Part shown: piece by piece, positions 2,039 to 32,628 of the stretch
Layout of the letters: each line of letters begins with the position of its first letter
Position numbering within the stretch: position 1 is the first letter of the stretch
Translations under genes and position numbers: made by a program
NCBI GenBank assembly: GCA_001593845.1
Contig: LUCF01000004.1
Coordinates: 1-36,831 of the forward strand
Length of the DNA: 36,831 bases
Direction of reading: 5' to 3'
From: Candidatus Bathyarchaeota archaeon B63
GTDB lineage: Archaea; Thermoproteota; Bathyarchaeia; Bathyarchaeales; DTEX01
Notes under the pieces: generated by a model
Told to the model about the DNA's origin: nothing
Seen by the model: only the letters and a program-made list of their open reading frames with translations
The model's database searches: none

Positions 2039-3526
2039 TTAATAATCAAGATACTTCATGATCTCCCACGGCGTAACATAGAGGCAGTACTGGTTCCAGT
2101 CGTTTGTCTTGTACTCGATGAAGGCGTCGAAGATGTGGCTCCCAAGCGTTCTGTGTATGACATCGTCACTCTTCATCTCATCCAAGGCATCCCTCAGCGT
2201 CGTCGGGAGCTCATCAATCCCCAGCGCCTTCCTCCTCTCCGAGGAGAGCTTATAGACATCCTCATCCACGGGGTCTCCTGGGTCGATCTTCTTCTTGATA
2301 CCGTCAAGCCCAGCCATCAAGATGCAGGAGTACGCCAAGTATGGGTTGCATGAAGGATCAGCAGACCTGAACTCGACCCTCTTAAGTGAGGCATGCTTCG
2401 GACCCTTGAAGTAGACCGGGACCCTTACGAGGGCTGATCTGTTACGCCTGGACCACATAATATATATCGGAGCCTCGAAGCCTGGGACGAGCCTCTTGTA
2501 GGAGTTTACTGTTGGGCAGCATACAGCAGTGAGCGCCTTCGCATGCTCAAGGAGCCCGCCGATGAAGTATCTCCCGGTCTGACTGAGCTCGGCGTACTCG
2601 TCGCTCTCATCGTACATGGCGTTCTCCCCGCCCTTCCAGATCGATGTGTGAACATGCATCCCACTCGCGTTGTCCAGGTAGACGGGCTTCGGCATGAACG
2701 TGGCGATCATCCCATACTTCTTAGCCACATTCTTAGCGACGAATTTATAGTAGATCGTCTTATCAGCGGTCTCAACCAATCCTCCGAAGCGGAAGTCTAT
2801 CTCCATCTGCCCAGCCGTCGCCACCTCATGGTGATGCATCTCAACCCTGAACCCAAAGTTATCCTCCAGTATGGATGCCACCTCATTCCTGTACTCGATC
2901 GTCGTATCCTCTGGGGGAGGCCTGAAGTAAGCCTCCTTCGGCCTTAAGGTGAAGCTCCCAGCGGAGATCTCAGGGGACTCAGGAACAACCCTCGGAGCCC
3001 CCCAGGAGTCCCCCTCACCCCCCTTGGGGCTGACCCACAAGTCCCAGACGAGCTTCGTCGGATCGACCGAGGAGAAGATGAAGTACTCCAGCTCAGGCCC
3101 AAAGTAGCTAGTGTAGCCCATATCCGCAGCCGTCTTAACCGCCCTCTTCGCCACGTATCCCCTAGAGCAGACCTCGGATGGCTCCTCGCCTCCGTATGCT
3201 TCATAGACATCCCCGATGACGATTGCGCTCTTCTGCTTCTCATCGCTCGTCCAAGGTATCACAGCCAGGGTCTCCGGATCAGGCTTAAGGATCATATCTG
3301 ACTCCTCGATGGACTTGAAGCCCCTTATCGATGAGCCGTCAAAGCCTATGCCAGATGTGAGGGCGTCGCCCTCTATGTACTCCCTAGCCGGTATGACCAC
3401 GTCTTGCATGAGGCCGCGGATATCCACGAATGTGGAGTGGACCCATCGTATCCCATTCTTCCTGAGCGTCTCAATGGCTGCCTTAACGGCCTCGTCCTTC
3501 AATGTTGGCACACCATTTTTGTTCAA
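2039..3526 (-). CDS. glnA: glutamine synthetase, type I
   Basis: 495 aa. GFDGSSIRGF (beta-grasp), FGPELEYFIF, ATFMPKP, SGMHVHTSIW, NSYKRLVPGFEAP, and RVEFRSADPSCNPYLA. TTG start at 3526. Confidence 0.95.
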   Translation of the reverse strand: MNKNGVPTLKDEAVKAAIETLRKNGIRWVHSTFVDIRGLMQDVVIPAREYIEGDALTSGIGFDGSSIRGFKSIEESDMILKPDPETLAVIPWTSDEKQKSAIVIGDVYEAYGGEEPSEVCSRGYVAKRAVKTAADMGYTSYFGPELEYFIFSSVDPTKLVWDLWVSPKGGEGDSWGAPRVVPESPEISAGSFTLRPKEAYFRPPPEDTTIEYRNEVASILEDNFGFRVEMHHHEVATAGQMEIDFRFGGLVETADKTIYYKFVAKNVAKKYGMIATFMPKPVYLDNASGMHVHTSIWKGGENAMYDESDEYAELSQTGRYFIGGLLEHAKALTAVCCPTVNSYKRLVPGFEAPIYIMWSRRNRSALVRVPVYFKGPKHASLKRVEFRSADPSCNPYLAYSCILMAGLDGIKKKIDPGDPVDEDVYKLSSERRKALGIDELPTTLRDALDEMKSDDVIHRTLGSHIFDAFIEYKTNDWNQYCLYVTPWEIMKYLDY

Positions 3527-3616
3527 TAGATCGACTATAAATTGAAAGAAATGTATATAAGTTTTTCGTTTATTGAAAAAACATTTATATAATATCTAAA
3601 AAATTGAATAAGTGTA
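3522..3616. promoter_or_regulatory. divergent glnA / lrp control region with TATA boxes and a phased ATTGAA repeat array
   Basis: Very A/T-rich. CTTATATA on the minus strand (3554-3561) lies 28 nt upstream of the glnA TTG. ATTTATATAA on the plus strand (3583-3592) lies about 25 nt upstream of the lrp TTG/GTG (3617/3623). ATTGAA occurs at 3541, 3572 and 3603 (exact 31-bp phasing), with an inverted TTCAAT at 3522-3527. Confidence 0.6.
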
Positions 3617-18641: not shown

Positions 18642-19775
18642 ATGTGTACACTTAATATTCTAATGGGCATTTATGAATCGAGAGGAAGGATGAATCCGTC
18701 AGAGAGGGTTCTTGCAGCTCTAAACCTCGAAGAGCCCGACGTCGTCCCCATAGGGGAGATAGGCTACGACCTGGGAAGACTATCATCGATTCTCAATATC
18801 CCTCTGGATGAGAGGATGAAACACGATGAGAGAGACGTCAAGATGAGAGTGGAGGTCCTCACCCGCTTCGTCGAGGCCCTCGACTTGGATATCGTCCCAG
18901 CCAATCCGAGCCCCCCTGAGGATGGGCCTAGAATCAGATGGTTAGACGAGGAGACATGGATCGACGAGTGGGGGGCCAAGTACCGGTATAAGAACGGAAT
19001 AAGCTGGTACGTGGGCCCGGGCTTGGATGACCCTGAGCAGATCTGGGAGCTTGAGCCGCCTGACCCCAATGCCCCAGGGATTATGGATGAGCCTAAGCTT
19101 CTAGTAGAGAGGTTCAAGGGCAGGAGGGCGGTGGCGGGCATCATACCAGGCCCTAAGATGCCATACCTGGCGAGGGGGATAGATGGCTATAACATCGACC
19201 TCTTCAGGAGGCCTTCCCTAGCAAGGAGGCTCATGGAGATGGCGACGGACTACAACACCGAGTTGGGTAAGAGGCTCATAGAGGTAGGTGTGGACTTCAT
19301 AGTCATGACCGGGGATGTCGCTTATAGGAGAGGCCCCCTAGTCTCGATTAAGCACTTCAGGGAGGTATTCGTCCCGGCGATCAGGGATCCAGCTAGGACA
19401 TTTCATAGGTTCGGGGTTCCGATGGTGAAGCATACTGACGGATACATCGAGCCGATAATCGAGGACCTCGTAAAGACGGGGATCAACGGGCTACACTCGA
19501 TCGAGCCGGCCGCTGGCATGAACATCAGAAGCGTCAAAGAGAGGTTTGGGAGCAAGATATGCCTCTGGGGAGGCGTGGACCTCTCCTACACGCTCTCTCT
19601 GGGCACGAGGGAGGAAGTAATAAAAGAAGTAAGGGACCGGATCTCCTCTGCTGCTCCGGGCGGGGGTTACATACTCAGCTCGTCTAATAGCTTCTCAACG
19701 GCGGTGAAGTTCGAGAACTTCAAGGCGATGGTCGAGGCGGGGAAAGCATATGGGAGATACCGGCCGCAGGGATGA
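18642..19775 (+). CDS. uroporphyrinogen decarboxylase (URO-D) family protein, MtaA/CmuA-like or sugar-locus type
   Basis: PSERVLAALNLEEPDVVPIGE at the N-terminus, and VKHTDGYIEPIIEDLVKTGINGLHSIEP. The likely true start is ATG 18690 (MNPSERV), preceded by GAGGAAGG. Confidence 0.75.
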   Translation: MCTLNILMGIYESRGRMNPSERVLAALNLEEPDVVPIGEIGYDLGRLSSILNIPLDERMKHDERDVKMRVEVLTRFVEALDLDIVPANPSPPEDGPRIRWLDEETWIDEWGAKYRYKNGISWYVGPGLDDPEQIWELEPPDPNAPGIMDEPKLLVERFKGRRAVAGIIPGPKMPYLARGIDGYNIDLFRRPSLARRLMEMATDYNTELGKRLIEVGVDFIVMTGDVAYRRGPLVSIKHFREVFVPAIRDPARTFHRFGVPMVKHTDGYIEPIIEDLVKTGINGLHSIEPAAGMNIRSVKERFGSKICLWGGVDLSYTLSLGTREEVIKEVRDRISSAAPGGGYILSSSNSFSTAVKFENFKAMVEAGKAYGRYRPQG

Positions 19776-22756: not shown

Positions 22757-24640
22757 ATGGCGGGCCTCCATATGATAATCTTCCAGCCTCACGGAAAAAG
22801 AATAGCCGCCGCCCAAGGGGAGACCCTGCTGGATGCGGCTAAAGACGCGGGGATCGCCGTAAACGCGCTCTGCGGCGGAGCCGGCCTATGCGGAAAATGC
22901 AGAGTGATGGTCCTGCGGGGTGAACGGAACTTATCCCCACCTACGGAGGCTGAGCGGAGATCGCTCTCAGAGGAGGACATCTCCAACGGCTTCAGGCTTG
23001 CCTGCCAGGCGACGGTCAGTGGAAAGGGGCCGATCGTGATCCTGGTCCCGCCGGAAAGCCGGGCTGAGAGGCAGAGGCTGCTCCTAAGAGGCTTGGAGGA
23101 GAAGATCAGCCCCCAGCCAGCTGTGAGGGAGCTCAACATCCGCCTCAAGGAGCCCTCCCTGAAGGACGTCGTTGCGGATGTGGATAGGCTTCTCAGGATC
23201 CTTGAGTCAGAGGTCGGCGCGAAGGTTAAGATCGATTACGAGGCGATGATCAGGGTTCCGCATGTCCTCCGGCGGGGTGGATGGCGGGTCTCCGTTGTGC
23301 TCTGGAGGGATCGGGAGGTAATCTCAGTTGAGCCTTCCCCCACCGGTCTGTACGGCTTCGCAGTTGATGTTGGGACGACGAAGCTAGCCGGGTACCTCGT
23401 TGACCTGAGGAGCGGAAGGGTCGCGGCGGCGGCCTCGATGATGAATCCCCAGATAGCGTATGGGGAGGACGTGATCACGAGGATAAAGTTCGCCTCGGAG
23501 GGTGAGGGAAACCTCAGGGTTCTCAGCCGAAGCATAATCGAGGGGATCAATAACCTCATCGGCGAGGCCTGCGGGAAGGCTCATGTATCCACGCGTGAGA
23601 TATACGATGTGACGGTTGCGGGGAACACCGTTATGCATCACATTCTCCTAGGCATCCCCCCGAATTATGTTGCGTTGATGCCCTACCCCGCGGCTCTCCA
23701 GTCGCCGGTCGATGTGAAGGCTAGGGAGCTGGGCATAGATGTGAACCCAGGAGCCTACGTTTATGCCCTGCCCACGATAGCCGGGTTTGTGGGCGGAGAC
23801 GCCGTCGCCGACATCCTGGCCACAGGCATCCACACGGCCGAGGAGATCTCGATGCTGATTGACATCGGGACGAACACGGAGATAATCCTCGGCGACAGGG
23901 AGAGCCTCATCGCCTGCTCATGTGCATCAGGCCCGGCCTTCGAGGGGGCTCACATAAAGCATGGGATGAGGGCGATAAGCGGAGCGATCGAGCATGTCTG
24001 GATTGACCCGGAGACCCTTGAGGCTGGATATAAGACGGTTGATGATGAGGAGGCCAGGGGGATCTGCGGATCCGGGATAATCGACGTCATAGCTGAGATG
24101 CTGAAGGCCGGACTGATCGATCAGAGCGGAAGGTTAAACAGCGAAGCTGAGACTCCTAGGCTGAGGGGGGATGGAAACTCAGCTGAGTACGTTGTAGCGT
24201 GGGGGGATGAGACGGCGAACGGCCATGACATAGTCGTAACCCAGAACGATGTAAGGGAGATACAGCTCGCGAAGGCCGCAATATACACGGGAGCCTCGAT
24301 CCTGATGAGGCATAGGGGGGTCCGGCCGAACGATATCCGTAGGGTCTACTTGGCCGGGGCCTTCGGGAACTACGTGGATCCCCAGAACGCCAAGATAATT
24401 GGGATGTACCCGGATGTTCCCCTTGAGAGGGTCAGATTCGTGGGGAACACAGCTGGCTCAGGCGCCAGGATGACCCTCCTCTCCGTCGAGGCTAGGAGGG
24501 CGGCTGAGGAGATCGCTGGGAAAGTTAGGTACGTCGAGCTCGGCGCAGACCCGGAGTTCCAAACGGAGTTTCTCAAGGCGACTTATCTGCCTCATAGGGA
24601 GCCTGAGAGGTTCCCAAGCGTCATCGCGCTGCTAAAGTAG
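22757..24640 (+). CDS. ASKHA-fold ATPase with N-terminal plant-type [2Fe-2S] ferredoxin domain (DUF4445; RACo / corrinoid reductive-activase-like)
   Basis: 627 aa. LCGGAGLCGKCRV...LACQ ferredoxin motif. ASKHA phosphate motifs FAVDVGTTKLAGY and LIDIGTNTEIIL. GSGIIDVIAE is also present. Confidence 0.85.
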   Translation: MAGLHMIIFQPHGKRIAAAQGETLLDAAKDAGIAVNALCGGAGLCGKCRVMVLRGERNLSPPTEAERRSLSEEDISNGFRLACQATVSGKGPIVILVPPESRAERQRLLLRGLEEKISPQPAVRELNIRLKEPSLKDVVADVDRLLRILESEVGAKVKIDYEAMIRVPHVLRRGGWRVSVVLWRDREVISVEPSPTGLYGFAVDVGTTKLAGYLVDLRSGRVAAAASMMNPQIAYGEDVITRIKFASEGEGNLRVLSRSIIEGINNLIGEACGKAHVSTREIYDVTVAGNTVMHHILLGIPPNYVALMPYPAALQSPVDVKARELGIDVNPGAYVYALPTIAGFVGGDAVADILATGIHTAEEISMLIDIGTNTEIILGDRESLIACSCASGPAFEGAHIKHGMRAISGAIEHVWIDPETLEAGYKTVDDEEARGICGSGIIDVIAEMLKAGLIDQSGRLNSEAETPRLRGDGNSAEYVVAWGDETANGHDIVVTQNDVREIQLAKAAIYTGASILMRHRGVRPNDIRRVYLAGAFGNYVDPQNAKIIGMYPDVPLERVRFVGNTAGSGARMTLLSVEARRAAEEIAGKVRYVELGADPEFQTEFLKATYLPHREPERFPSVIALLK

Positions 24641-27216: not shown

Positions 27217-28753
27217 CTATGCCTGAGCGCTAAGGGCCCGCTGAGCTCGATGATGGATTCCCGAAGCCGGGTGTAGAGCCCCTTCTTCAGCATCACCAGC
27301 TCGCCTCTCTGTGAAGAAGAACCTTGTCTGACCCATAGTCTTCACGTCGAGCGGCCTTATCTTCACTACGATCGGGAAGTCCTTCACCATCCTCCCAAGG
27401 AGTAGGCAGTGGTGGGGGGGCAGGTCGCGGACTATGGATGTGATTGTCTCAGCATCCGCCCTTGCGGCCCTCGCGATTATCTGGAGGTCATGCTCATTCA
27501 CGAAGTTCAGCAGGAATATGTTATCCGCCTGACGGTAGATGTTCTCGTGGATCGTGTTCGGCTGGTTCGTGATGAATGTTGTGAAGAGCCCGAAGTGCCT
27601 CATCCTCGTGACTATGTCGTCCCAGTATGTCTCCTTCAGGTATAGGTGAGCCTCCTCAGCGAAGAGGAAGACGGCCCTTATCTTCCACTGCGAGAGGGCG
27701 TCCTGAAGCTTCGCCAGGACGTACTCCCATCCTCCGGTCAGATGGGGAAGTACCACTTAGATCTATGACTATGGCGCCGCCTCCTCCCCTCTCAGCCTTG
27801 CGGAGGAGACCCTCGAAGTCAGTCGCCTCAGCCATGTTATCCGTGAAGAAACCGGAGTTGAGGAGGGCTGAGTAACGCGAGTAGAGCGCATCCTTCACAT
27901 GCTGGTTGCACTTCCAGTTCTGGATAGCCTCCCCCAGACCATGAAGGGTGAGCCTCCCCCTCTTCTCAAGGAACCTCCATATCTGCCGGAATTCCCGGGC
28001 TGAGGTTCCGGGAAGCCCAAGAGCGTATGTGAGGGTCCTCATGATCACGTAGAGCTCAGTCTGATACAATGTGACCTTGAAGCTCCTCCCCGGGGTTAGT
28101 ATGCGGATCTTGCCGTGATACCTATTCTTTGAGCCGTCCTTGCCGTATCCGAGATTCGTATACTCGCCGTTTATGTCTAGGATGACGACGACCGCCCCAT
28201 AATCGATGAGGCTCAAGACCAGCAGCTTAGAGAGGTGAGACTTACCAGTCCCTTTCTTCCCCGTTATTATGTTCAGCTTTCCGTCCAGCTGAAGGGCATC
28301 AACTGCGAGGGGGAAGGAGTCCTGCGTCTCCCCGAGCCTTATTGGAAGGCCCCCATCCATATCCGCCATCTCAACGAGAGACTCGGTCGGGAGCTTACAT
28401 ATCGTGGAATTCATCCTGGATGGGAGCCAAGAATTCTCCTGCCTCAGCTCACCGTTCATTATCGTACCATGGATCTTGCAGATCAGCAGACGGGCATCCT
28501 GAATGTACAGTATATGAGATGTTATGCCGAGTGGGTCTTCATCCTCGCCGCTTAATGAGTCCCCAGCATCAGAGGATCGGAGTAGCTCCTCCATCACCCC
28601 GGGGACATTAGCGAACTCTATGTCTATCACCTGAGCTATCATTGCCTTGTCTGCCTTCCGATCCCTTATGAGCAGGTACTCGCCCTTCTCAACTTCCTCG
28701 CCTGGGAAGCTCAGAATATGCAGTGTATTACCGGCTTTCCTGAAGAGCCTCAT
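27217..28753 (-). pseudogene. herA: HerA-like FtsK/HerA-superfamily ATPase (HAS-barrel + DUF87 ATPase), split by one frameshift into the track ORFs 27656-28753 and 27217-27756
   Basis: The upstream ORF has an N-terminal HAS-barrel-like segment, Walker A ITGKKGTGKSH, VVILDINGEY (the HerA D-x-x-GEY motif) and AIVIDLSG. The downstream ORF, in the +1 frame, continues with VFLFAEEAHLYL (Walker B) and FITNQPNTIHENIYRQADNIFLLNF. The frames meet at a C4 run (plus-strand GGGG 27744-27747). Removing one C gives a continuous 511-aa protein. Confidence 0.85.
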
Positions 28754-28756
28754 CGC

Positions 28757-29845
28757 TTAGTCTCCCAGCCTAACCCCGTAGGGCCCAAAGAGGGTCCGAT
28801 GCATGTTAACTCTCGAGACGAGCCTAAGCCCGTACCTCTTGATCATGAACCGCTGTATGCCGATGACCTCCGTCGCCGTGAATGTGGAGTATATATGCGC
28901 CAGACGCAGGGTCTCCGGGTACCCCTGATAGAGCAGCTCGTTACCAAGCAGCCTCTCCACGGCCGTTATGCTCTCCTCCCTAGATATGGATCTATCAATA
29001 TCCAAGCGGAACGCGCAGCCCCCACTCGCCAACCTCGCAACGTAGATCCTCCCGAGGGGCCGAGTGGAAGCCGACGAAGAGAGCGGGAGAGAATCGATCT
29101 CGAATAAGCATGGCGGCCGATAACCATCAACGAGGTCTGTTATCCTCCAATCCAGAAACCTCAAGGTTGTATCCTTAGAGAAGCCCATGATTATATTTGA
29201 GTTCCGCCTAGCCGCCTTAAGTATCTCTGAGACCCCCGCGGCTGGGCTTCCTGGGACCCCTGCGGTTAGGGAGCCATCCCAGAGGATTATGCATTCCCTC
29301 ATGAGGTGGGAGACGCATAACTGAAGCCATCTCTCTATGAGGCTGCAGAGCCTGGTTTGCTGCTCCGTCTGCGGGAGAGCGGAGAGGCTCAGGTCGAGGG
29401 CCTCATTCATCTCCCTCGAAGCCCCATTTAGGCTTCTTCTTGTTACGTGAAACGTGAATGGGCCGAGACGGAGATATCGATACCCCTCATTCGTCCTCGT
29501 CACTATGGCTCCCCTCACGGCGTAGACCGCCCCCAAATCGGTTGTCCCCACCCTGATGGTTGAGACATCTATCCCTGTTATTGTGGTCCCGTCCCTGATC
29601 GGCCTCAGGGGAATCAGCAGAGTCGAGGCCATCCTGCCCCGTAGAGATTCCAGGTCTTTATCGTGCTCACCATTCAAGAAGGGCTCTGGGAGCTCCGTGT
29701 TGTCCAGCTGGAAGGGCCTTCCCTTGACCATATGCATGGAGTTTAGGCTTAATTCCATGATCTTATGGGAGAGGCTCGTCCACTTTGGGGTGAGTGGAAA
29801 ATTATATTTTGATGTTGTTTCATAGTGTAACTGCCCAATCAACAA
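28757..29845 (-). CDS. nurA: NurA-like 5'-3' nuclease
   Basis: 362 aa. ITGIDVSTIR (the GIDGS-type Asp), LIERWLQ (Glu), CIILWDGSLTAG (DGSL motif), IIMGFSKDTT, and GYPETLRLAHIYSTFT (the GYPY-x-L-x-x-A-H/D type). Its stop is 3 nt before the herA ATG. The start is TTG at 29845, or a later ATG at 29755. Confidence 0.75.
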   Translation of the reverse strand: MLIGQLHYETTSKYNFPLTPKWTSLSHKIMELSLNSMHMVKGRPFQLDNTELPEPFLNGEHDKDLESLRGRMASTLLIPLRPIRDGTTITGIDVSTIRVGTTDLGAVYAVRGAIVTRTNEGYRYLRLGPFTFHVTRRSLNGASREMNEALDLSLSALPQTEQQTRLCSLIERWLQLCVSHLMRECIILWDGSLTAGVPGSPAAGVSEILKAARRNSNIIMGFSKDTTLRFLDWRITDLVDGYRPPCLFEIDSLPLSSSASTRPLGRIYVARLASGGCAFRLDIDRSISREESITAVERLLGNELLYQGYPETLRLAHIYSTFTATEVIGIQRFMIKRYGLRLVSRVNMHRTLFGPYGVRLGD

Positions 29846-29986
29846 TATTCACCAATTTGCAAATCTGTGGTGATGTTGTATATAAATGTTGTGCATGCGC
29901 AAATTGCACAATAAAAATCAACAATATACTGAGGCGCCAAACGGGTAAAAGAACCCCGGCAAAGGCATAAAGAACGTGAGGGTAAG
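29846..29986. promoter_or_regulatory. divergent promoter/operator region between nurA-herA and the wHTH/DUF523 operon
   Basis: Central TATATAAA (29879-29886, usable in either orientation). Perfect palindrome ATTTGCAAAT (29855-29864). Inverted repeat TTGTGCA-N9-TGCACAA (29889-29911), whose spacer contains ATGCGCA. An 11-bp direct repeat ATCAACAATAT occurs at 29838-29848 and 29917-29927. Confidence 0.6.
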
Positions 29987-30403
29987 ATGGCGAGGCCTGA
30001 AGGCGGAAAGGACGAAGGAAACGTCCGAATAAAAATGAAGGTCGGAAACGTAGAGTTCGAGATAGAGTGCCGGGAGGACCGGATACAGCAGGTGATCGAG
30101 AAGGTCCTCTCAACAGTGACGGAGCACATGAAGAGGACGGCCACCCCAATCGGCGAGGCTGAATACCCAACAGGCAAGGCTGAGACATGCCGGGGGATAG
30201 TTGAAAGGCTCTGGAAGGAGGGGTTCTTCGCTGAGCCCCGTTCACTCAGTGAGGTGCATGAGGAGATGACGCGGATAGGCTACCATTATGATAGGACGGC
30301 CGTGGCTCACGTCCTGCTCGACCTCGTCAGGGACGGGGTCTTAACGCGGGAGGGGAAACCGCGGAGATACGTGTACGTCCAGAAACGCCCACCAACCGCT
30401 TGA
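29987..30403 (+). CDS. small DNA-binding protein: N-terminal beta-hairpin/helix module + C-terminal winged helix; divergent paralogue of 31019-31504 and 31505-32020
   Basis: 138 aa. VRIKMKVGNVEFEIECREDRIQQVIEKVL aligns without gaps with the N-termini of the other two proteins. The C-terminal part, LSEVHEEMTRIGYHYDRTAVAHVLLDLVRDGVLTREGKPRRYVY, is wHTH-like. GAGGG precedes the ATG. Confidence 0.65.
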   Translation: MARPEGGKDEGNVRIKMKVGNVEFEIECREDRIQQVIEKVLSTVTEHMKRTATPIGEAEYPTGKAETCRGIVERLWKEGFFAEPRSLSEVHEEMTRIGYHYDRTAVAHVLLDLVRDGVLTREGKPRRYVYVQKRPPTA

Positions 30404-30996
30404 TGGATAAGACGGGAATGGAGGCTGACCTGTTGAGGAACGGGGAAGCCCCGGAGGATCTTTGGATAATCGTTCTTTCCCACTGCATCCTCAACCGGGC
30501 GACGAGGTGGTGGCAGAGGGGAAAGCCCCTAGATGACAGCCGGGGGATGGCCTCCCAGATCCTCGAATTACTCTCAGGTCTACAAATCGGCGTAATCCAG
30601 ATGCCGTGCCCGGAGTTCACCTTCTGCGGTAACCCACGGCCACCCAGAACGATGGATGAGTACCTGAGTCTTCCTGGCTTCCGAGATCACTGCGCGAGGC
30701 TGGCGGATGAGACGGCTGAGTATCTTAAGAGCCTCATCGAGAACGCCCGGGAGCCACGGATCAGAATCCTAGCGATCCTAGGGGTTGAGCGGTCCCCCAC
30801 ATGCTGTGTTGAATATGCACCTGTCGGGGACGGGGCGGAGAAGCGATACGAGAGAAGAAGGGGAATCTTCATTGATCTGCTGGTTAAAAGCCTAAGGGAC
30901 AGGGGAATAGAGGTGCCGGTCATCGGGGTCGACCTTAACAGGCCTGAGGAATCAGCCTCGATGATCCTCGATCTTATAAGCAGGCATAAGCCATAA
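30403..30996 (+). CDS. DUF523 / TudS-like [4Fe-4S] protein (thiouracil desulfidase family)
   Basis: Three Cys-motif contexts match my recollection of DUF523: VLSHCILN (cf SACLLG), MPCPEFTFCGNPRPPRT (cf PVCPE..GGLPTPRPP) and VERSPTCC (cf ERSPSCG). ATG 30403 overlaps the upstream TGA (TGATG), which suggests translational coupling. The track ORF starts 3 nt earlier, at TTG 30400. Confidence 0.6.
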   Translation: MDKTGMEADLLRNGEAPEDLWIIVLSHCILNRATRWWQRGKPLDDSRGMASQILELLSGLQIGVIQMPCPEFTFCGNPRPPRTMDEYLSLPGFRDHCARLADETAEYLKSLIENAREPRIRILAILGVERSPTCCVEYAPVGDGAEKRYERRRGIFIDLLVKSLRDRGIEVPVIGVDLNRPEESASMILDLISRHKP

Positions 30997-31018
30997 TGCC
31001 TGATGGAATGATTCAGGC

Positions 31019-31504
31019 TTACTTCCAGTATTCCCCGATGAGCGATTCTGTCCTCCTTATTCCGAGGGTCGTTAACCTATACTCCCCATCAGTCGTCCTC
31101 TCGATCAGCCCATCTGAGATGAGCCTCGGAACCTCGTTAGAGACCGTTTTACGTGCCTTACCGATGATCCTCGCAAGGTCCCTCGTGGAGAGGGAGTCCC
31201 GGGGGAGCTTCCCCAATGCCTTTCCGAGATAAGCCCCCAGAAGGGCCAAGCATATCGCGTCTCTTGCGGGGACATCCAGATCGGGCGGCAAGATCGGGCC
31301 ATCTTGGGTTATCTCGACGAGCCCCTCAACCCCCCGGGCGAGGCTGATCACATCCGGCGTGTATATTATCCTTTGGAGAACCTCAAGTCCGGGACAGATC
31401 TGCGTGAGGAACTTCATGGTTAACTCGATGACCTCATCCACGTCTCCCTCGAAGTCAGCCTTGGCCTCGCCGAATTCTATGCGGACCTTCAGCTTCTCAC
31501 CCAA
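31019..31504 (-). CDS. winged-helix protein with N-terminal beta-hairpin/helix module; paralogue of 31505-32020
   Basis: 161 aa. LKVRIEFGEAKADFEGDVDEVIELTMKFL, VEGLVEITQDGPIL, and the C-terminal wHTH LSTRDLARIIGKARKTVSNEVPRLISDGLIERTTDGEYRLTTLGI. Its TTG start directly abuts the TAA stop of the upstream paralogue. Confidence 0.7.
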   Translation of the reverse strand: MGEKLKVRIEFGEAKADFEGDVDEVIELTMKFLTQICPGLEVLQRIIYTPDVISLARGVEGLVEITQDGPILPPDLDVPARDAICLALLGAYLGKALGKLPRDSLSTRDLARIIGKARKTVSNEVPRLISDGLIERTTDGEYRLTTLGIRRTESLIGEYWK

Positions 31505-32020
31505 TTATGCCCCTTCCCCAGCCTCGATTTTTGGCAGAACCTCATCGAGGAAGTTCTTTATCCCGAGGGTCGTTATCCTGTATTCTCCCCGCCCCACCCT
31601 CTCAACCCAGCCTGAGCTGACAAGCTCGCTTAGGCGAGCGGCAACCGTGCTGGACTTCACCCCGATGAGCGATTTTATCTCGCTGCTCGCGAGTGTATCC
31701 TTATCTAACCTCCCCGTTCTGTGTCCTATGTACGCCTTGATGAGGTGGAGCATGATGGCGCCTTTATCCCCGCCCAGCCTCTCCTTAGAGACCGTGACAA
31801 CCGGGCCTTCAGGGGTGAAAGCTATTATCCCCTCCACGTTCTCTATGAGGCCCTCGAGGTCCACCGTTAGGGTGATCTTGGATGCGAGGTCAAAGGCGGG
31901 GAGGATACGTTGTACGAACTTGAGGAGCACCCTAACCACTTCCTCCGGCTTACCGCGGAACCTCAATTCGAGATCCCTATACTTTGCATATACTTCTAGG
32001 AGATCTCCTTCACCTTCCAA
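31505..32020 (-). CDS. winged-helix protein with N-terminal beta-hairpin/helix module; paralogue of 31019-31504
   Basis: 171 aa. LEVYAKYRDLELRFRGKPEEVVRVLLKFV, VEGIIAFTPEGPVV, and LASSEIKSLIGVKSSTVAARLSELVSSGWVERVGRGEYRITTLGI. The TTG start is preceded by AAGGAGG with a 7-nt spacing. Confidence 0.7.
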   Translation of the reverse strand: MEGEGDLLEVYAKYRDLELRFRGKPEEVVRVLLKFVQRILPAFDLASKITLTVDLEGLIENVEGIIAFTPEGPVVTVSKERLGGDKGAIMLHLIKAYIGHRTGRLDKDTLASSEIKSLIGVKSSTVAARLSELVSSGWVERVGRGEYRITTLGIKNFLDEVLPKIEAGEGA

Positions 32021-32348
32021 GCAGCAGCCTCCTTAACCATCCCTTCACGTGAGCTCTTCTCCGCCGCATGGGCTATGCTACCCGTGATGGACAAGTCATC
32101 CGTGCAGGCACGGCGATCATACATGAGTATATCTATGTATATTAAAAGATTTGCCGCTTAGGAAGTAAAGCCTCTTATTTGGAGATCAATTATGAGCAGG
32201 CCTTCGTGAGTCAGCCTAAAGACCGTGTGACACCGTCGAAGATCAAAAGGAGAAGGCATAGCGAGACTCCGCCTGAATACTGAGCATCCCCCTATTTTTC
32301 CATGCGTTCCCTCCCACGTTTATAGGAGATGTACATAAGTACTTCTTG

Positions 32349-32377
32349 AATGCGCAGAAATGCGCATACTTTATAAA
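32349..32377. promoter_or_regulatory. orphan TATA box abutted by twin AATGCGCA boxes
   Basis: AATGCGCA occurs at 32349-32356 and 32359-32366 (10-bp phasing), immediately followed by TTTATAAA at 32370-32377. There is no supported CDS within about 250 nt on either side. The same ATGCGCA heptamer lies in the nurA/wHTH operator (29895-29901). Confidence 0.45.
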
Positions 32378-32628
32378 GGAAAAATTTCCTGGCAGGAGGA
32401 CCATTTGAGACGGAATAGAGACAAAAAACTTTCCAGGGACATACAAGGTACGCTTAATAATAAAGAATCAGGATCAAGATCACCGAAGAAAAAAATCAGC
32501 ATCAAAGCGCGTAGAGCGGAGGGTCCGCCTAATCGGCTGCTGACATTCTGCTTAAGGGAATTGTTCGGTCCCATAGAAAAGGCGCAATTTCTCTTCAGGC
32601 TGGGACCCGGTTGATCGTGTACGGTTCT

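Follow-up and report, generated by a model that had tools for sequence, protein, structure and literature searches.

Small dimeric winged-helix regulators are well known. The described systems closest to the one reported here are the Csa3, HVO_A0261_N and AbiEi regulators, the AspA, PadR and MarR-like DNA binders, and the BlaI/MecI/CopY and RTP/Fur repressors. The locus in question lies in a 36,831-nucleotide stretch (the window) of contig LUCF01000004.1 from Candidatus Bathyarchaeota archaeon B63, where three small genes, here called A, B and C, occupy positions 29987 to 32020. The segment is chromosomal and belongs to a Bathyarchaeia archaeon; all named homologues come from metagenome-assembled genomes (MAGs) labelled Bathyarchaeia or Bathyarchaeota, and the genomes compared are MAGs throughout. 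Gene regulation and the control of DNA repair are almost unexplored in Bathyarchaeia, a group of uncultured archaea that is abundant in sediments. Together with a fourth paralogue found in other genomes (A'), the three proteins form a family with a shared N-terminal module and a C-terminal winged helix. The family probably consists of oligomerising winged-helix regulators in which B and C would form a heterodimer and A would regulate the promoter between A and the nuclease gene nurA (probability roughly 0.55). On present evidence it is a lineage-specific variant of the known regulators, not a new kind of system.

Winged helices and their closest described relatives

Gene A (29987-30403, forward strand) encodes a 138-residue protein with an N-terminal module (N-module), a disordered linker and a C-terminal winged helix. 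The N-module covers residues 12-50 (30020-30136, forward strand), where AlphaFold2 predicts a hairpin plus a helix, and the winged helix-turn-helix covers residues 66-132 (30182-30382, forward strand), as indicated by sub-threshold Pfam and weak Foldseek matches. Genes C and B form a tandem on the reverse strand. The first gene, C (31505-32020), encodes 171 residues, with the N-module at residues 7-39 (31904-32002, reverse strand; AlphaFold2 hairpin plus helix, and profile homology) and the winged helix-turn-helix at residues 105-153 (31562-31708, reverse strand; a Pfam match near the cut-off, and Foldseek). The second, B (31019-31504), encodes 161 residues. Its N-module at residues 4-36 (31397-31495, reverse strand) is placed by hhalign against that of C, and its winged helix-turn-helix at residues 96-149 (31058-31219, reverse strand) by sub-threshold Pfam and PDB profile matches. 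A sequence-only reading of the window had listed these three open reading frames (ORFs), and all are present with the coordinates and sequences it gave. It also described B and C as translationally abutted; the TAA stop of C is indeed followed directly by the TTG start of B.

The same reading took the C-termini for winged helices. Pfam (below threshold), Foldseek and PDB profile matches all lead to winged-helix regulators. The model of C has the three-helix bundle and two-stranded wing of the superfamily and matches many winged-helix chains with a Foldseek probability of 1.0. Its helices 112-119 and 123-136 and wing strands 139-143 and 146-149 have a predicted local distance difference test score (pLDDT) of 91-95. 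The model of A shows the helices of the winged helix and lacks the wing. The middle segment and the wing motif GEYR[IL]T.LG[IV], noticed earlier as common to B and C, are kept in 64 B/C homologues. In A the winged-helix stretch GYHYDRTAVAHVLLDLVRDG is invariant or nearly so, and the recognition helix is invariant in the alignment of A homologues. Cys28, Cys68, His100 and His108 of A are invariant in 32 diverse homologues; these two cysteines and two histidines could form a metal or redox site. The cysteine that opens helix 1 of the winged helix is retained in most A' proteins too.

For the C-terminal 50-60 residues of B and C, the best sequence matches are the Csa3/HVO_A0261_N/AbiEi regulators (PF25213, PF13338; TIGR01884), which have the same three-helix core and beta-wing. 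All Pfam scores fall under the curated cut-offs. Against PF25213 (HVO_A0261_N) C scores 32.7 bits (cut-off 35) and B 24.5 bits, and against AbiEi_4 C scores 24.4 bits (cut-off 25); PF25213.2 is listed for many homologues in the precomputed annotation of the database. The sub-threshold Pfam matches of B are HVO_A0261_N, HVO_A0114, HTH_Crp_2 and MarR_2, and B/C match the PADLOC Csa3 model with an E value of 1.6e-6. Csa3 differs from B and C in having an N-terminal CARF domain, a Rossmann-like ligand-binding domain of ~130 residues that B and C are without, and TIGR01884 reaches 18 bits against a cut-off of 60. AbiEi has an N-terminal winged helix followed by a C-terminal domain and works with an AbiEii nucleotidyltransferase toxin, whereas the winged helix of B and C is C-terminal. 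No AbiEii-like neighbour was found in the loci read.

The best structural matches to the C model in Foldseek are AspA (4rs8), MarR, IclR and TubR. AspA, the centromere-binding protein of pNOB8 (PDB 4rs8), and the PadR/MarR-like dimers (5k5o, 3voe) align with the winged helix and the next helix of C, with a target-normalised template modelling (TM) score of 0.67-0.70, a root-mean-square deviation (rmsd) of 2.3-3.0 over 79 columns and an E value of about 4e-3. These are small dimeric archaeal or bacterial DNA binders, but they dimerise by helices flanking the winged helix and are without an N-terminal strand-strand-helix module. The A/B/C locus has no partner genes of the ParA/ParB type. Profile searches of the PDB match winged-helix regions only, in IdeR-related, CooA, ArsR and AspA chains. 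B and C do not belong to the MarR family, with MarR_2 scores of 20.3 and 15.8 bits, under the cut-off of 27. In MarR proteins the winged helix is flanked by N- and C-terminal helices of the dimer interface, whereas the N-terminus of C is strand-strand-helix and the full-length Foldseek alignments have an rmsd of 14-17.

The winged helices of A and A' are closest to BlaI/MecI/CopY (Penicillinase_R) and to RTP/Fur, with scores that are not significant. The sub-threshold Pfam matches of A are Penicillinase_R, RTP and HTH_27; A and A' score 17.4 and 16.6 bits with Penicillinase_R (cut-off 22.6). Foldseek gives weak matches of A to RTP, Fur and PadR winged helices, with E values of about 0.7-1 for RTP and Fur. 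Repressors of the BlaI/MecI/CopY and RTP/Fur types are autoregulated and bind palindromes that overlap the promoters of their own genes. BlaI has an N-terminal winged helix and a C-terminal helical dimerisation domain; this order is reversed in A, which falls outside the BlaI/MecI family. No sensor or protease partner of the BlaI type is found at the A locus.

In prokaryotic DNA-binding proteins of the ribbon-helix-helix and swapped-hairpin (AbrB/MazE) types, tiny beta-containing elements are stable only as intertwined dimers. The N-module recalls these proteins in concept. There, however, the beta-sheet itself reads DNA, whereas the proteins described here have a separate winged helix, a strand-strand-helix topology and no sequence match to either type.

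The nurA-A promoter and the gene arrangement

The spacer between nurA and A contains a TATA box at 29879-29886 (TATATAAA, other strand TTTATATA) and an operator-like element at 29889-29911. The element consists of a 14-bp quasi-palindrome, TTGTGCATGCGCAA (29889-29902), and then TTGCACAA (29904-29911). The spacer was aligned with five and then with 74 distinct orthologous species sequences. Positions T10, A11 and A12 of the TATA box are invariant in the 74 spacers, and so is TTG[C/T]GCA (74/74), which lies 2 nt from the TATA box. This heptamer extends to the quasi-palindrome TTGNNCATGNNCAA in 52 of the 74, and a third TGNNCA core follows the quasi-palindrome in the alignment. The 14-mer palindrome occurs 54 times in 660 kb of loci; 53 of these matches are in the nurA-A spacer, where 0.5 would be expected, and the spacer copy is the sole exact match in the window. 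The NN dinucleotides in the centre are free to vary; those of the two arms are complementary in only 7 of the 52. Since these dinucleotides are non-complementary, protein contacts at TTG and CAA fit better than an RNA stem. The palindrome was also considered as an RNA hairpin, and this was rejected because the central dinucleotides do not covary and the window has no Rfam or tRNA match. An A/C-rich stretch with the consensus CAATACAATAAACAATA, moderately conserved, lies downstream of the palindrome (29912-29935) and before the ribosome-binding site of A; it is probably the 5' untranslated region of A.

The NurA-like nuclease gene (28757-29845, reverse strand; Pfam NurA 23.3 bits, cut-off 21) is divergent from A and is followed by the gene for a HerA (DUF87) ATPase (27217-28753, reverse strand; Pfam DUF87 E 9.5e-13). 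Neighbourhoods were surveyed in 80 loci of GTDB species representatives with an in-house ORF and hidden Markov model (HMM) pipeline. In about 75 of these 80 loci, nearly all of those with enough flank, A is divergent from nurA (about 364 aa) and then herA (about 490 aa); nurA itself is next to A wherever the flank is long enough. The start of a TudS-related desulfidase gene (30400-30996, forward strand) overlaps the stop of A (TGATG); across species, A usually has a TudS-like gene after it, as seen in a large proportion of the loci. The product matches the NCBIfam CD3072 family putative desulfidase model with an E value of 4e-30 and 104 bits, under the curated cut-off of 130. A thiouracil-desulfidase-like enzyme is in this way translationally coupled to a winged-helix protein.

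It is suggested that a homodimer of A acts on the palindrome TTGNNCA-TGNNCAA, 2 nt from the TATA box shared by nurA-herA and A. This assignment is favored because the site is invariantly adjacent to A, the recognition helix of A is invariant and the site is exclusive to the spacer. A would thereby control its own A-TudS-like operon, the HerA-NurA end-resection genes, or both. Control of herA-nurA by A would make A the first candidate for a regulator of end-resection genes in this class. A and the TTGNNCATGNNCAA element at the nurA-A promoter form a candidate pair of protein and DNA site whose testing requires nothing beyond recombinant material.

In every genome read, C and B occur in tandem, with B always directly downstream of C. 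Because this translationally coupled tandem is invariant, C and B from the one transcript may form a heterodimer. Gene arrangements were counted in 68 non-redundant species loci with enough flank. In 43 of these, a B, C or A' gene is convergent to A within about 4 kb. Reading away from A, with all genes pointing toward it, the order is B-C in 17 loci, C-C-A' in nine and C-A' in nine; eight have another arrangement with at least one paralogue, and 25 have none nearby. Where no paralogue is nearby, B-C is located elsewhere, for example beside gatD-gatE in four loci (L002-L005). In other genomes C-B is preceded by a divergent gene of 230-248 aa without a Pfam match, beside gatD-gatE. Family operons always mix different paralogues, and in other lineages the pairing might be A'-C or A'-C-B. 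A conserved element upstream of C-B was sought and none was found. The gap of ~600 bp upstream of C (32021-32628) has no ORF of at least 110 aa and no Rfam or tRNA match. In other lineages this position is held by A'; a remnant or degraded A' gene was sought in the gap and none was found.

The sequence-only reading had suggested a hetero-oligomeric DNA-binding assembly of all three proteins. The invariable tandem fits a heterodimer of B and C, and A is beside paralogues in 43 of the 68 species. An assembly that includes A is possible, but A also has a separate and invariant context (nurA-herA, the TudS-like gene and the operator-like palindrome), and 25 of the 68 species have no paralogue within about 4 kb downstream of A.

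Several observations weigh against the family being oligomerising regulators with A at the nurA-A promoter. The palindrome is found upstream of none of the B, C or A' operons in the 660 kb of loci; therefore, nothing ties B and C to the palindrome site. The other strand of the invariant TTGCGCA places CGCAACA directly upstream of TTTATATA, and this resembles an archaeal B recognition element (BRE) for a nurA-directed promoter. Since the heptamer sits where that BRE would lie, part of its conservation may reflect basal promoter sequence and not a site for A. A is as conserved as the HerA ATPase, which is unusual for a plain transcription factor; the median identities to the window proteins are 63% for A, 62% for HerA, 45% for NurA and 46% for TudS. 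Finally, confidence in the N-module is moderate, with a pLDDT of 61-79 in C and 62-69 in A, both from monomer models.

A more far-reaching version of the proposal is possible but rather speculative. The strand-strand-helix would be an undescribed oligomerisation fold, the four paralogues would form A2, B-C and A'-C-B, and the whole would be a dedicated control system for DNA damage or end resection, or an accessory complex, that serves HerA-NurA, is specific to Bathyarchaeia and neighbouring Thermoproteota, and has a class-wide invariant operator. The class-wide invariant operator beside end-resection genes and the four-paralogue system that mixes paralogues within operons are of specialist interest.

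It is somewhat less likely still that A, B and C are not regulators at all but DNA-binding accessory subunits of HerA-NurA, acting as one hetero-oligomer, for example as adaptors for DNA ends or substrates in place of missing partners. The strict linkage of A to nurA-herA, the convergent B, C or A' genes, the conservation of A at the level of HerA and the lack of mre11-rad50 beside herA-nurA in the loci read, where the neighbour is the isoleucyl-tRNA synthetase gene (IleRS), would all agree with such a role. However, A is divergent from nurA-herA and co-transcribed instead with the TudS-like desulfidase, B-C is elsewhere and beside gatD-gatE in many genomes, and a conserved promoter palindrome is what is expected of an autoregulated repressor. 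The canonical mre11-rad50-herA-nurA operon was not encountered in the window or in loci L006-L009, where herA-nurA is located between A and IleRS or other genes. HerA-NurA was also considered as a defence system and rejected; PADLOC gives only weak HerA matches (E >= 1e-4) and none for NurA, and the cluster is fixed chromosomally across the class.

In the window, herA is split by a frameshift of one base into two overlapping ORFs, with the junction near 27720-27756. Compared with a 490-aa orthologue (L015), the two ORFs align end to end, with residues 1-344 of the N-terminal ORF matching 1-343 and residues 11-152 of the C-terminal ORF matching 344-485. Either the gene is a real pseudogene or the split arose from an error of sequencing or assembly in a G-run.

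The N-terminal module

Two strands followed by a helix had been proposed for the N-terminus, and AlphaFold2 predicts this order in both A and C. The model of C, built with the family alignment (pLDDT 72.8), has strands at 8-14 and 17-23, helices at 25-39, 42-48 and 55-60, strands at 66-69 and 72-75, a helix at 85-101, the winged helix at 112-136 with its wing at 139-149, and a helix at 151-166. The model of A is of low confidence (pLDDT 64), with strands at 12-19 and 22-29, a helix at 30-50, a disordered segment at 50-64, and helices at 68-77, 87-97 and 103-116. In C the hairpin and helix of the N-module have a pLDDT of 67-79. In each protein a strand-strand-helix of ~35 residues is joined through a variable middle to a winged helix-turn-helix at the C-terminus. 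The disordered linker of A and A' is replaced in B and C by an insert of ~45 residues, made up of two short helices and a second hairpin.

Two copies of the N-module most likely associate, giving a four-stranded sheet with two helices packed against it; the module would thus be the oligomerisation domain and bring two winged helices together. Pairing is proposed because the module is too small to bury a core alone and has one hydrophobic face per strand and an amphipathic helix. Should the N-module prove to be a new dimerisation fold, winged-helix proteins would have a further way to pair.

The sequence-only reading did not recognise the module as a named domain, and the collections searched agree with this. 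The N-module alone has no sequence match in Pfam-A, PADLOC or the PDB, and no NCBIfam model covers it. Profile searches of the PDB with the full-length protein, the N-module or the N-terminal 92 residues return nothing but winged-helix matches and noise, de novo designed beta proteins for example. Foldseek searches of the PDB with the full-length models of C and A match the winged helix alone and never the N-module. A literature search on Bathyarchaeia, HerA, NurA and the winged helix, and on HVO_A0261, found nothing relevant.

It has also to be considered that the N-terminal region is a domain for sensing a small molecule or signal and not primarily an oligomerisation module, for example a minimal ACT-like, beta-grasp-like or degenerate CARF-like fold, above all in B and C with their second hairpin, which would make the family one-component sensors. 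Full-length C matches the PADLOC CARF3--CARF model over residues 8-147 with an E value of 1e-4, the PADLOC Csa3 models are matched by B and C, the B/C topology of strand-strand-helix and then strand-strand would suit such a domain, and the invariant Cys28, Cys68, His100 and His108 of A could bind metal or sense redox state. Once the winged helix is taken away, however, the N-terminal 92 residues of 22 diverse B/C members have no PADLOC match at E <= 1, no PDB match, no Pfam CARF match and no Pfam family found in more than one member. Since the CARF and Csa3 matches vanish without the winged helix, they reflect the winged helix only, and this lead was abandoned. The 35 residues of the module in A and A' leave no room for a ligand pocket. 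A sensing role for the N-terminus is therefore doubtful, and pairing through the N-module is preferred.

Relationships among the subfamilies and surrounding genes

The sequence-only reading described a three-member paralogous family whose N-termini align position for position, in strings of 29 residues that begin at residue 13 (A), 5 (B) and 8 (C). B and C are clearly related, with a BLASTP E value of 8e-30 at 34% identity over the full length and an hhalign E value of 5e-12 for the N-module alone. B and C are much closer to each other than either is to A. Pairwise BLASTP of A against B or C is not significant (E 0.65 to 25). The ungapped register scores 28 (A-B) and 20 (A-C) with BLOSUM62; with the register held fixed, p is about 1e-4 to 1e-3, whereas compared with the top score over all offsets of shuffled sequences p is 0.08 (A-B) and 0.55 (A-C) and not significant. 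A first hhalign comparison of A with B/C, built from close homologues only (effective number of sequences about 2), aligned the recognition helix alone with a probability of 1.7%.

Profiles of the N-module give a different result. The A profile matches the B+C profile with a P value of 3e-4, a score reached by one of 300 column shuffles. With a broad profile of the B/C superfamily, made from 97 representatives at 50% identity, hhalign gives a probability of 77%, a P value of 2e-5 and a z score of 6, and none of 100 column shuffles reaches the score. These N-module comparisons recover the exact register of the earlier alignment without its being supplied.

The fourth paralogue, A' (137-179 aa; e.g. 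3159-3572 in locus L062), was uncovered in the scan of the 80 loci and is not in the window. A' profiles match A with a probability of 98% (E 4e-14) and the B/C superfamily with a probability of 96% (E 1e-8). Each of the two alignments is collinear and extends over the whole length, N-module and winged helix included. For the N-module alone, A' matches B/C with a P value of 9e-10 (z = 14.7) and A with 6e-6 (z = 8.1). MAFFT places 32 N-modules, drawn from A, A', B and C, in one alignment free of internal gaps, which shows the pattern h-x-h-x-h-x-h-G-x-h-x-h-x-h-x-[GC]-x-x-[DE]-x-h-x-x-h-h-x-x-h. A, A', B and C all have this pattern followed by a C-terminal winged helix, in 135-180 aa total.

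Because of the profile matches of the N-module and the collinear full-length bridge through A', it is concluded that the four subfamilies are homologous over both domains. The earlier alignment is correct, with support from the profiles and the A' intermediate rather than from the three window sequences alone. The paralogy also stands, over the N-module and the winged helix alike, but the family has four subfamilies and not three members. It is very improbable that the N-terminal likeness of A to B/C is convergent, with A an unrelated winged-helix neighbour that happens to share the hairpin and amphipathic helix: the non-significant pairwise and all-offset scores and the 1.7% of the first profiles would be compatible with convergence, and column shuffles wipe out secondary-structure periodicity and hence overstate significance, but A' joins both sides over its full length, one A' sequence (L057) is matched by both the A and B HMMs, A' is co-transcribed with C-type genes and hhalign found the register unprompted.

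The A family includes more than 1158 homologue clusters at 90% identity, all from Bathyarchaeia-type MAGs and with 60-80% identity to A, and A relatives are encoded by 159 GTDB species representatives. There are 243 homologue clusters for C and 82 for B. The B/C profile finds 540 representatives (50% identity) at E <= 1e-3 and 180 at E <= 1e-10; most have 160-175 aa and are matched along their whole length. The family has its centre in Bathyarchaeia; Geothermarchaeota have B/C members, and relatives occur in MAGs labelled Nitrososphaerales. A module that is unnamed in domain databases is carried by a family conserved in at least 159 species representatives. In some B/C-family proteins the family region is joined to another domain, a Ser/Thr protein kinase domain in P0323 (535 aa) and DUF488 in P0398 (326 aa). 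Two others, P0378 and P0381 (about 370 aa), have an unassigned N-terminal extension of ~200 aa. All of these may be real fusions or gene-calling artefacts on short contigs.

The genes around A, B and C in the window are ordinary metabolic ones. A URO-D-like gene is located at 18642-19775. A complete gene of the RACo type (reductive activator of corrinoid proteins) is located at 22757-24640 on the forward strand and has the Fer2, RACo_linker, Raco_middle and RACo_C_ter domains.

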